Program-made: the position numbers and the translations under genes
Assembly: GCF_003334305.1 (NCBI RefSeq)
Contig: NZ_QOWS01000078.1
DNA from: Escherichia coli
GTDB lineage: Bacteria; Pseudomonadota; Gammaproteobacteria; Enterobacterales; Enterobacteriaceae
Direction: 5' to 3' (one strand)
DNA: 410 nucleotides
Part shown: piece after piece, positions 1 to 410 of the stretch
Layout of the letters: each line of letters begins with the position of its first letter
Numbering within the stretch: position 1 is the first letter of the stretch
Notes under the pieces: model-generated
The model's input: only the letters and a program-made list of their open reading frames with translations
The model's database searches: none
Told to the model about the DNA's origin: nothing

Positions 1-410
1 CTGGATATCGATATCCCGTATGCGACGGACCCGGCAGGAAACCGGCTGCCGGACCCGGAACTGCACCCGGACAGCACGCTCACGGCGTGGCCGGATAACC
101 GCATCGCGGAAGATGCGCACTATGTCTACCGCCACGATGAATACGGCAGGCTGGCGGAGAAGACGGACCTCATCCCGGAAGGGGTTATCCGGATGCACGA
201 CGAGCGGACCCACCACTACCATTACGACAGCCAGCACCGTCTGGTGTTCTACACGCGGATACAGCACGGCGAACCACAGGTGGAGAGCCGGTACCTCTAT
301 GACCCGCTGGGCCGCCGGACGGGAAAACGGGTATGGCGGCGGGAGCGTGACCTGACGGGGTGGATGTCGCTGTCGCGTAAACCGGAGGAGACCTGGTACG
401 GGTGGGACGG
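1..410 (+). CDS. Rhs-family / YD-repeat protein, conserved core region (internal fragment, partial at both 5' and 3' ends; frame 1, codon 1 = nt 1-3)
   Basis: Seen in sequence: frame +1 is open for all 136 complete codons with no stop. Codon usage is typical of a real enterobacterial-type gene (ctg, ccg, gcg, acg, cgg preferred). The translation contains three canonical YD-repeat motifs and the stretch [38 protein letters not shown], which I recognise from memory as the late core of E. coli Rhs proteins (RhsA/B/C-type). High GC (about 64%) fits Rhs cores. The paralog cannot be assigned from 410 bp, so no gene symbol is given. Confidence 0.93.
121..153 (+). other. YD-repeat motif (protein-level) [11 protein letters not shown]
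   Basis: Frame +1 translation of nt 121-153 gives [11 protein letters not shown], a variant of the Rhs/YD repeat consensus (Y.YD..GRL). Confidence 0.75.
217..243 (+). other. YD-repeat motif (protein-level) YHYDSQHRL
   Basis: Frame +1 translation of nt 217-243 gives Y-H-Y-D-S-Q-H-R-L, matching the Y.YD...RL repeat pattern. Confidence 0.75.
292..318 (+). other. YD-repeat motif (protein-level) YLYDPLGRR
   Basis: Frame +1 translation of nt 292-318 gives Y-L-Y-D-P-L-G-R-R, a near-consensus YD repeat (Y.YD..GR.). Confidence 0.8.

Follow-up and report, generated by a model that had tools for sequence, protein, structure and literature searches.

The 410-nucleotide (nt) stretch of Escherichia coli DNA analyzed here (contig NZ_QOWS01000078.1 of assembly GCF_003334305.1; "the window" denotes this whole stretch) is very probably an internal piece of an rhs gene of the E. 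coli/Shigella RhsG/H type that would encode late strands of the Rhs shell, and its likeliest source is an hcp-vgrG-rhs locus near yafV/ivy/fadE in which the conserved core ends in an L,D-peptidase tip. The window alone fixes neither the tip nor the integrity of the gene of which it is a part. The tip cannot be inferred from it because the identical 410 nt are joined to three different tips, and integrity cannot be inferred because, of the 17 classified genomes with an exact copy of the window, 6 have rhs annotated without its N-terminus.

Reports on the Rhs elements of E. coli go back to the 1990s, and the organization of these elements into core, tip and immunity gene, their linkage to a type VI secretion system (T6SS) and the autoproteolytic nature of the shell are established. 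The window itself holds nothing new and belongs to an annotated, already well-known gene family. As the window comes without flanks, predictions about the downstream region were tested by proxy in genomes with a 100%-identical copy of the window. At least 25 E. coli genomes have such a copy, and of the 25 listed we classified 17 by tip and by the integrity of rhs; it is to these 17 that statements on exact-match genomes refer. A wider megablast search covered 5426 complete E. coli genomes and located the window in 3720, with a median of 3 occurrences per genome; all of these fall in genes that carry the annotation RHS core protein, and in 175 records the best match reaches at least 99%.

The window encodes a late part of the Rhs core

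The window has a GC content of 64% and is free of stop codons in frame +1 over 136 codons. By itself an open frame of this length is weak evidence for coding: one or more stop-free frames turn up in 17% of mononucleotide shuffles of the window and a stop-free frame +1 in 2%, and frame -3 of the window lacks stops as well. Coding in frame +1 is settled because of two further observations, namely the GC content at codon positions 1, 2 and 3 in this frame (68/44/81%), which is as expected of a GC-rich gene, and the match of the translation to the NCBIfam profile NF041261 RHS_core (E = 1e-92, 311.8 bits, profile positions 909-1044 of 1261). The cut-off of this profile is 2000 bits, and the window falls under it solely as a fragment of 136 amino acids (aa). 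Together with three YD-type repeat motifs (Table 1), the match confirms from sequence comparison that the window is a late part of the conserved E. coli Rhs core, which is where the original prediction had placed it.

Other searches of the window returned little. Pfam RHS_repeat gave no significant match to the window alone (E ~4), the repeats being singly too weak on so short a piece; Rfam gave no match on either strand at E up to 1, and a scan of the window for internal repeats found trivial repeats only. The DPLG within the third motif, YLYDPLGRR, was considered as the boundary between core and tip and rejected, since it is part of an internal YD repeat and the true boundary lies 604 nt past the end of the window.

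In GE3 (locus L001), one of the exact-match genomes, the complete Rhs protein of 1411 aa scores 2618.9 bits against RHS_core over profile positions 1-1261, with nine stretches of TIGR01643 YD_repeat_2x (E = 2.6e-46) and the Rhs-associated core TIGR03696 (Rhs_assc_core) at aa 1181-1258 (E = 2.3e-23). It is homologous in sequence to Rhs shells of solved structure, including Tse5 (8cp6, E = 2e-122) and Pseudomonas protegens RhsA (7q97, E = 1e-90); the alignment with RhsA spans query aa 310-1084 and includes the window, and TcC/YenC2 (4igl) matches the end of the core. K-12 rhsD and the other chromosomal Rhs paralogues share this architecture, with homology that reaches the boundary motif and then ends; rhsD is ~83% identical in nucleotide sequence over the late core, whereas its own tip and downstream open reading frame (ORF; ybbC) differ.

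Table 1. Positions of the features discussed in the text, in the window or in the genomic loci fetched (L001, L007).
Feature	Position	Strand	Remarks
Coding sequence, Rhs YD-repeat core	window 1..408	+	136 codons; residues 911-1046 of the 1411-aa GE3 Rhs
YD-type repeat motif YRHD	window 127..138	+	aa 43-46; weak Pfam RHS_repeat match at aa 42-56
YD-type repeat motif YHYD	window 217..228	+	aa 73-76; weak Pfam RHS_repeat match at aa 72-82
YD-type repeat motif YLYDPLGRR	window 292..318	+	aa 98-106; TIGR01643 YD_repeat_2x match at aa 95-110, E = 0.039
Stop-free antisense frame -3	window 1..408; L001 11911-12924	-	part of a 337-aa ORF antisense to the rhs core
Tip A (predicted L,D-peptidase)	L001 13045-13503		153 aa; Pfam YkuD, E = 3.4e-5
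Putative immunity ORF after tip A	L001 13484-13876		130 aa; 23-nt overlap with the rhs stop codon; VIGC lipobox (aa 20-23)
Tip C (predicted clan-CD-like)	L007 5045-5497		151 aa; within the 36-44% GC range of the tips
Sel1-repeat ORF after tip C	L007 5569-6078		169 aa

The core/tip boundary and the mosaic structure of the core

A boundary motif of the form PxxxxD(P/S)xGL occurs in frame +1 in all 17 exact-match genomes and starts 604 nt past the end of the window, at the same offset whichever tip follows; in GE3 it reads PIRYTDPLGL (aa 1249-1258). Nucleotide similarity among the E. coli Rhs paralogues stops at query position ~1008-1011, which is the boundary motif, and the core's GC content of ~63% gives way to 36-44% in the tips and 33-38% in the ORFs that come next (63, 44 and 33%, respectively, in GE3). 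Beyond the motif, the identical core segment continues into one of three tips (151-160 aa), which are unrelated to one another, and then into one of three likewise unrelated ORFs (130-169 aa). The original prediction had expected a boundary within roughly 1 kb downstream, then a divergent C-terminal domain of lower GC content and a small ORF; in the proxy genomes the boundary falls inside that distance, both the tip and the small ORF are found in 17 of 17, and each part of the prediction that could be put to the test was borne out.

Comparison of the three contexts (L001 12001-13050 against L005 and L007 4001-5050) also reveals a mosaic upstream of the motif. Counted from the start of the window, contexts A and C (defined below) agree fully to about +750 and B and C from +751 to +950, and after about +1010 all similarity among A, B and C is gone. 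This pattern of divergence suggests recombination breakpoints within the conserved core, beyond those at the DPxGL boundary.

Three tips on an identical core

The exact-match genomes fall into three contexts. In context A (13 of 17) the motif PIRYTDPLGL precedes a 153-aa L,D-peptidase-like tip that is identical in all 13, then a 130-aa lipoprotein-like ORF, in an hcp-vgrG-rhs-ISAs1 arrangement near yafV. In context C (3 of 17), at the same locus as A, the motif is PIEHIDPLGL and is followed by a 151-aa clan-CD-like tip and a 169-aa Sel1-repeat protein. In context B (1 of 17), at pptA/yddH/nhoA and without vgrG, it is PVRFIDSLGL, followed by a 160-aa tip with the sequence HEFAH and by dsORF-h1, an ORF with a signal-peptide-like start. 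The context-B motif (L005 5015-5044) has Ser where DPxGL has Pro and is missed by a strict DPxGL regular expression. Among the 5426 complete genomes the tip arrangements A, B and C occur in 904, 986 and 365, respectively.

Both hcp and vgrG lie directly upstream of rhs, with tssB/C/E/F/G beyond, in loci L001, L003, L004 and L006, an arrangement that context B does not share; the vgrG and hcp genes for which the original prediction advised searching the flanks are thus next to rhs in these four loci. The gene order agrees with the published RhsG element, whose rhsG downstream of vgrG has been named as the effector that this E. coli T6SS probably delivers (PMC10711316). Locus and gene order are the same, with 100% identity to the window in many strains, and the window itself offers no difference from that element; the tip that follows the identical core is YkuD-like or clan-CD-like depending on the strain.

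Tip A is a predicted L,D-peptidase with a candidate periplasmic immunity protein

Tip A is predicted, from its profile match, its conserved His and Cys residues and its modelled fold, to be a toxin of the L,D-peptidase (YkuD-fold) type. Besides the Pfam match to YkuD (Table 1), identical tip-A fragments are titled 'L,D-transpeptidase family protein' by NCBI. Among homologues at 31-54% identity, many of which likewise sit after a DPxGL boundary, His96 is invariant and Cys118 is present in 16 of 17 sequences. The AlphaFold model has a predicted local distance difference test (pLDDT) score of 80.9, and in a Foldseek search of the PDB each of the top 8 matches has the fold of an L,D-transpeptidase or carboxypeptidase, the best being Csd6 (4xzz, E = 7.9e-4); these eight include Csd6, YkuD, Bd1075, Ldtfm and YcbB. 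A PDB sequence search with the tip gave nothing significant, so that among solved structures it is placed solely by fold comparison, and NCBIfam has no match for the tip or for the ORF that follows it. The spacing of 21 residues between His and Cys is of the classical YkuD type and fits HXX14-17[S/T]HGC except for a Met at the second His.

The closest functional parallels are the Tlde1 effectors of the Salmonella T6SS and Tox-LD-peptidase; tip A resembles them in having a predicted fold of the YkuD type and a His/Cys pair, in being fused to Rhs repeats and linked to a T6SS, and in the exported immunity protein predicted to accompany it. The preprint on Tlde1 mentions proteins in which Rhs is fused to domains of the L,D-peptidase type, and Tox-LD-peptidase fused to RHS repeats, with T6SS linkage, is listed in the 2012 survey of polymorphic toxins by Zhang et al. 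(PMC3482391). Assignment of tip A to Tlde1/DUF2778 itself was considered and rejected: the Pfam match is to YkuD, the spacing is 21 residues as opposed to 9 in Tlde1a (H121/C131), and Tlde1a (7uma) comes only at rank 10 of the fold matches (E = 0.3). The ORF after tip A is unrelated to DUF2195 as far as tested. Its lipobox fits a predicted periplasmic immunity protein for a toxin directed at peptidoglycan.

This ORF contains a poly-G tract at about nt 207-214 that varies in length: intact copies have G8, L009 has G7 and L002 has G9 (both frameshifted), and L014 has G11, which is in frame and gives 131 aa. The remainder of the ORF is identical among these variants, and the differences in length could be either a sequencing artefact or slipped-strand variation of immunity. 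In L013 the ORF is broken by many other homopolymer indels, which looks like an assembly error.

Proposed mechanism and its weak points

The following proposal combines our own observations (homology, motif position, GC break, gene order, conserved His and Cys residues and predicted folds) with autoproteolysis, T6SS delivery, enzymatic activity and immunity as inferred from the literature. By analogy with solved structures of Rhs proteins and Tc toxins, the window would encode YD-repeat strands of the late part of a β-cocoon that encloses the protein's own C-terminal toxin. The Rhs-associated core would close the cocoon and cut the chain after PxxxxDPxGL, leaving the toxin free inside, and the loaded shell would be mounted through an N-terminal PAAR-like region on the VgrG spike and fired into neighboring bacteria. 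Once in the periplasm of the target, tip A would damage the stem peptides of peptidoglycan, and the cognate small protein, which in the case of tip A is the 130-aa lipoprotein-like ORF, would protect sister cells. Cleavage of Rhs after DPxGL with retention of the toxin in the core has been described (10.1101/2024.02.26.582050). A YD-repeat cocoon, a core plug and a DPxGL cleavage site are shared by the solved T6SS Rhs proteins (RhsA 7q97, P. aeruginosa Tse5 8cp6, Acinetobacter baumannii Tse15 8uy4, Photorhabdus Tre23 7pq5 and the containers 8qja-8qjd), which differ from the protein considered here in their N-terminal loading modules and tips. The TcB-TcC component of Tc toxins (YenC2 4igl, TccC2 6l7i) likewise has a homologous core end with a DPxGL autoprotease (10.1101/2024.02.26.582050), but Tc toxins are delivered to eukaryotic cells by the TcA pore and not by a T6SS spike.

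Several observations weigh against this assignment, at the level of the source locus as well as of the mechanism. The downstream context comes from proxy genomes and not from the window's own flanks; 4 of the 17 exact-match genomes bear a tip other than A, and rhs lacks its N-terminus in 6, so that in these it could not be mounted on the spike. The N-terminal autocleavage motif of T6SS Rhs proteins is PVxxxxGE (10.1101/2024.02.26.582050), whereas aa 48-55 of the GE3 protein (L001 9412-9435) read PVNPLLGA, with Ala for the expected Glu. Although EHEC (enterohaemorrhagic E. coli) Rhs proteins have been described as carrying PAAR (PMC7216683), Pfam finds DUF6531 and RHS repeats but no PAAR family in aa 1-500; the N-terminus begins MGGKPAARQGD, with the letters P-A-A-R at aa 5-8. 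For tip A the structural matches are modest (TM score ~0.5), and residues 115-120 are TMGCTR as against the classical [S/T]HGC[hydrophobic]R; the position of the second His is variable across tip-A homologues, none of which has His. For the ORF after tip A, Pfam gives only a weak match to DUF4367 (E = 4.6e-4) and none to Imm16 or Imm57, the families linked in the literature to L,D-peptidase toxins.

Tips C and B

Tip C is predicted, chiefly from structural modelling, to be a cysteine peptidase of clan CD (caspase-like or resembling the cysteine protease domains, CPDs, of large toxins). It has no match in Pfam, NCBIfam or PDB sequences, and a tip-C profile searched against the PDB also gave nothing significant. 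A word-indexed search recovered close relatives only; an exhaustive search recovered a wider family of 1363 representative clusters. In many of these the domain forms the C-terminal end of a large protein, and some giant proteins, 3000-6800 aa long, contain 4-6 copies of it. Two residues, His32 and Cys75, are invariant in 29 sequences. The predicted model has a pLDDT of 93.4, and in the Foldseek ranking cysteine protease domains from MARTX, TcdA and TcdB occupy the first 11 places, followed by CHAT, legumain and metacaspase. For these 11 the match probability is 0.85-1.0 (at least 0.98 in the top six), with a best E-value of only 6.6e-3 and a TM score of 0.44. The Sel1-repeat ORF downstream has two weak NCBIfam matches only, far under their cut-offs. 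One database entry for a tip-C fragment is titled 'rhsG core protein with extension'.

Tip C shares a predicted clan-CD fold, invariant His and Cys residues, an extreme C-terminal position and an occurrence in tandem arrays with Tox-Caspase (Zhang et al., 2012) and with the Peptidase C80 domains of MARTX and TcdA/B. Tox-Caspase, with its C-terminal toxin versions and arrays, is listed in the 2012 survey (PMC3482391). At ~150 aa, tip C is shorter than the CPDs of 200-250 aa, and it has no profile-level match to any curated family. We regard it as a long shot that tip C and its Sel1-repeat partner could represent a new class of T6SS effectors, namely antibacterial proteases, and that the G7-G11 variation in the tip-A immunity ORF could be real slipped-strand switching as opposed to sequencing error. 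We know of no experimental test of the clan-CD-like tip family.

Tip B is possibly a zinc metallopeptidase: its HEFAH sequence conforms to HExxH, and Pfam gives a weak match to Peptidase_M91 (E = 0.002). NCBIfam has no match for tip B or for dsORF-h1, which begins with a hydrophobic, signal-like segment.

Alternative sources and integrity of the gene

Among the alternatives to an intact hcp-vgrG-rhs source with tip A, one that we consider doubtful but that carries real weight is that the window, whichever tip follows it, lies in a non-functional rhs remnant left by IS3 insertion or deletion, either a pseudogene in decay or, at most, a store of tip and immunity sequences. The six genomes mentioned above have rhs annotated as 'incomplete, missing N-terminus', and three type-A loci out of 13 have a frameshift in the downstream ORF, two through the poly-G tract and the third through the other homopolymer indels. 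Yet rhs is annotated as complete in the other 11 genomes, nine of them of type A with a length of 4236 nt seen or inferred (H1, H3, H5, H6, H11, H12, H14, H16 and H17), one of type B (H7, 4263 nt) and one of type C (H24, inferred solely from the annotation 'RHS element core protein'), and the 100% identity of core, tip and ORF across many unrelated strains argues against free decay. A truncated or pseudogenised core fragment was also what the original prediction had named as its refuting case: truncation does occur in a sizeable minority, the six genomes without the N-terminus of rhs, but the boundary motif and tip that were to be absent are still present there, as is the ORF. An unlikely source, in our estimate, is a copy with the clan-CD tip and the Sel1-repeat protein as its immunity partner (context C). 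Its presence in three exact-match genomes (H13, H25 and H24/H81) and in hundreds of complete ones, the invariant residues and fold matches of tip C, and a 21-kb rhsG-tssM deletion described for ST410-B/H24 (PMC10711316) speak for it; against it, context C is a minority of the exact matches, and the tip's structural scores are low, with nothing from the family and sequence databases to add to them. In the two context-C loci fetched in full, rhs is a dead remnant of an rhsG-tssM deletion that removed the T6SS.

Derivation from the rhs gene at pptA/yddH/nhoA (context B), which is RhsH-like and has no adjacent vgrG, is very improbable. Strain S51 does carry the exact window there, the tip-B arrangement is common, and the HEFAH sequence, the weak Peptidase_M91 match and the signal-like start of dsORF-h1 count in its favor; but S51 is the only such case among the exact-match genomes, and most tip-B genomes presumably differ from the window in the core, matches of at least 99% being confined to the 175 records noted above. 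That antisense frame -3 encodes a real overlapping protein can be given next to no credence. The frame is open over the whole window and reaches 337 aa in the genome, but it is without annotation in all 16 loci fetched, its translation is biased in composition (rich in R, L, P and V), and the codon-position GC pattern agrees with frame +1. Shadow ORFs are expected opposite genes of high GC content at the third codon position, here 81%, and we rejected the antisense frame as a gene on the grounds of annotation, composition and this pattern.

Two rearrangements were observed in the loci fetched. In 2013C-3181 (L002 8010-10117) an IS3-family element splits rhs after its N-terminal DUF6531 part; vgrG is also N-terminally incomplete in this genome, and hcp and tssB are missing. 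At about position 2372 of L007 and L008, an N-terminally deficient rhs abuts a tssM remnant on the opposite strand, as in the published ST410-B/H24 deletion.

What the window can and cannot tell

The intact type-A source remains the reading that we prefer, and the three tips (L,D-peptidase, clan-CD-type and possibly zinc metallopeptidase) are of modest interest as candidate antibacterial effectors. The two better-supported types, L,D-peptidase and caspase-like, are already in the 2012 survey. The expectation that any novel biology at this locus would lie downstream of the window was reasonable, but the tips found there likewise belong to toxin classes already catalogued. For scans of this kind the lesson is that a window in a conserved core cannot identify the toxin and that the variable cargo has to be read from real flanks; the identical 410 nt are followed by at least three tips and belong to a truncated gene in about a third of the genomes examined, and in itself the window matters little.

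Genomic surroundings

In GE3 the order of genes is tssB/C/E/F/G, hcp, vgrG, rhs, the small ORF, an ISAs1 pseudogene, two small ORFs and a second rhs, and the 3' end of the locus has further ISAs1 remnants and then yafV/ivy/fadE. An ISAs1-family transposase gene, usually a pseudogene, lies ~180 nt past the small ORF in every type-A locus, and remnants of ISAs1 are also found in contexts B and C. With H-rpt/ISAs1 in this position, the type-A loci have the full composition of a classical E. coli Rhs element (core, extension, dsORF and H-rpt). Neither the 150-aa ORF that follows ISAs1 nor the ORF annotated as DUF3969 has an NCBIfam match. The second rhs of L001 (16214-20340), located 2.7 kb downstream of the first, is frameshifted; its own boundary motif is PIQVIDPMGL, its tip has 149 aa, and the ORF that goes with it is of the YdcD family. 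This second rhs is preceded by a 64-aa DUF3969 gene, and the same gene precedes the intact rhs of context B.

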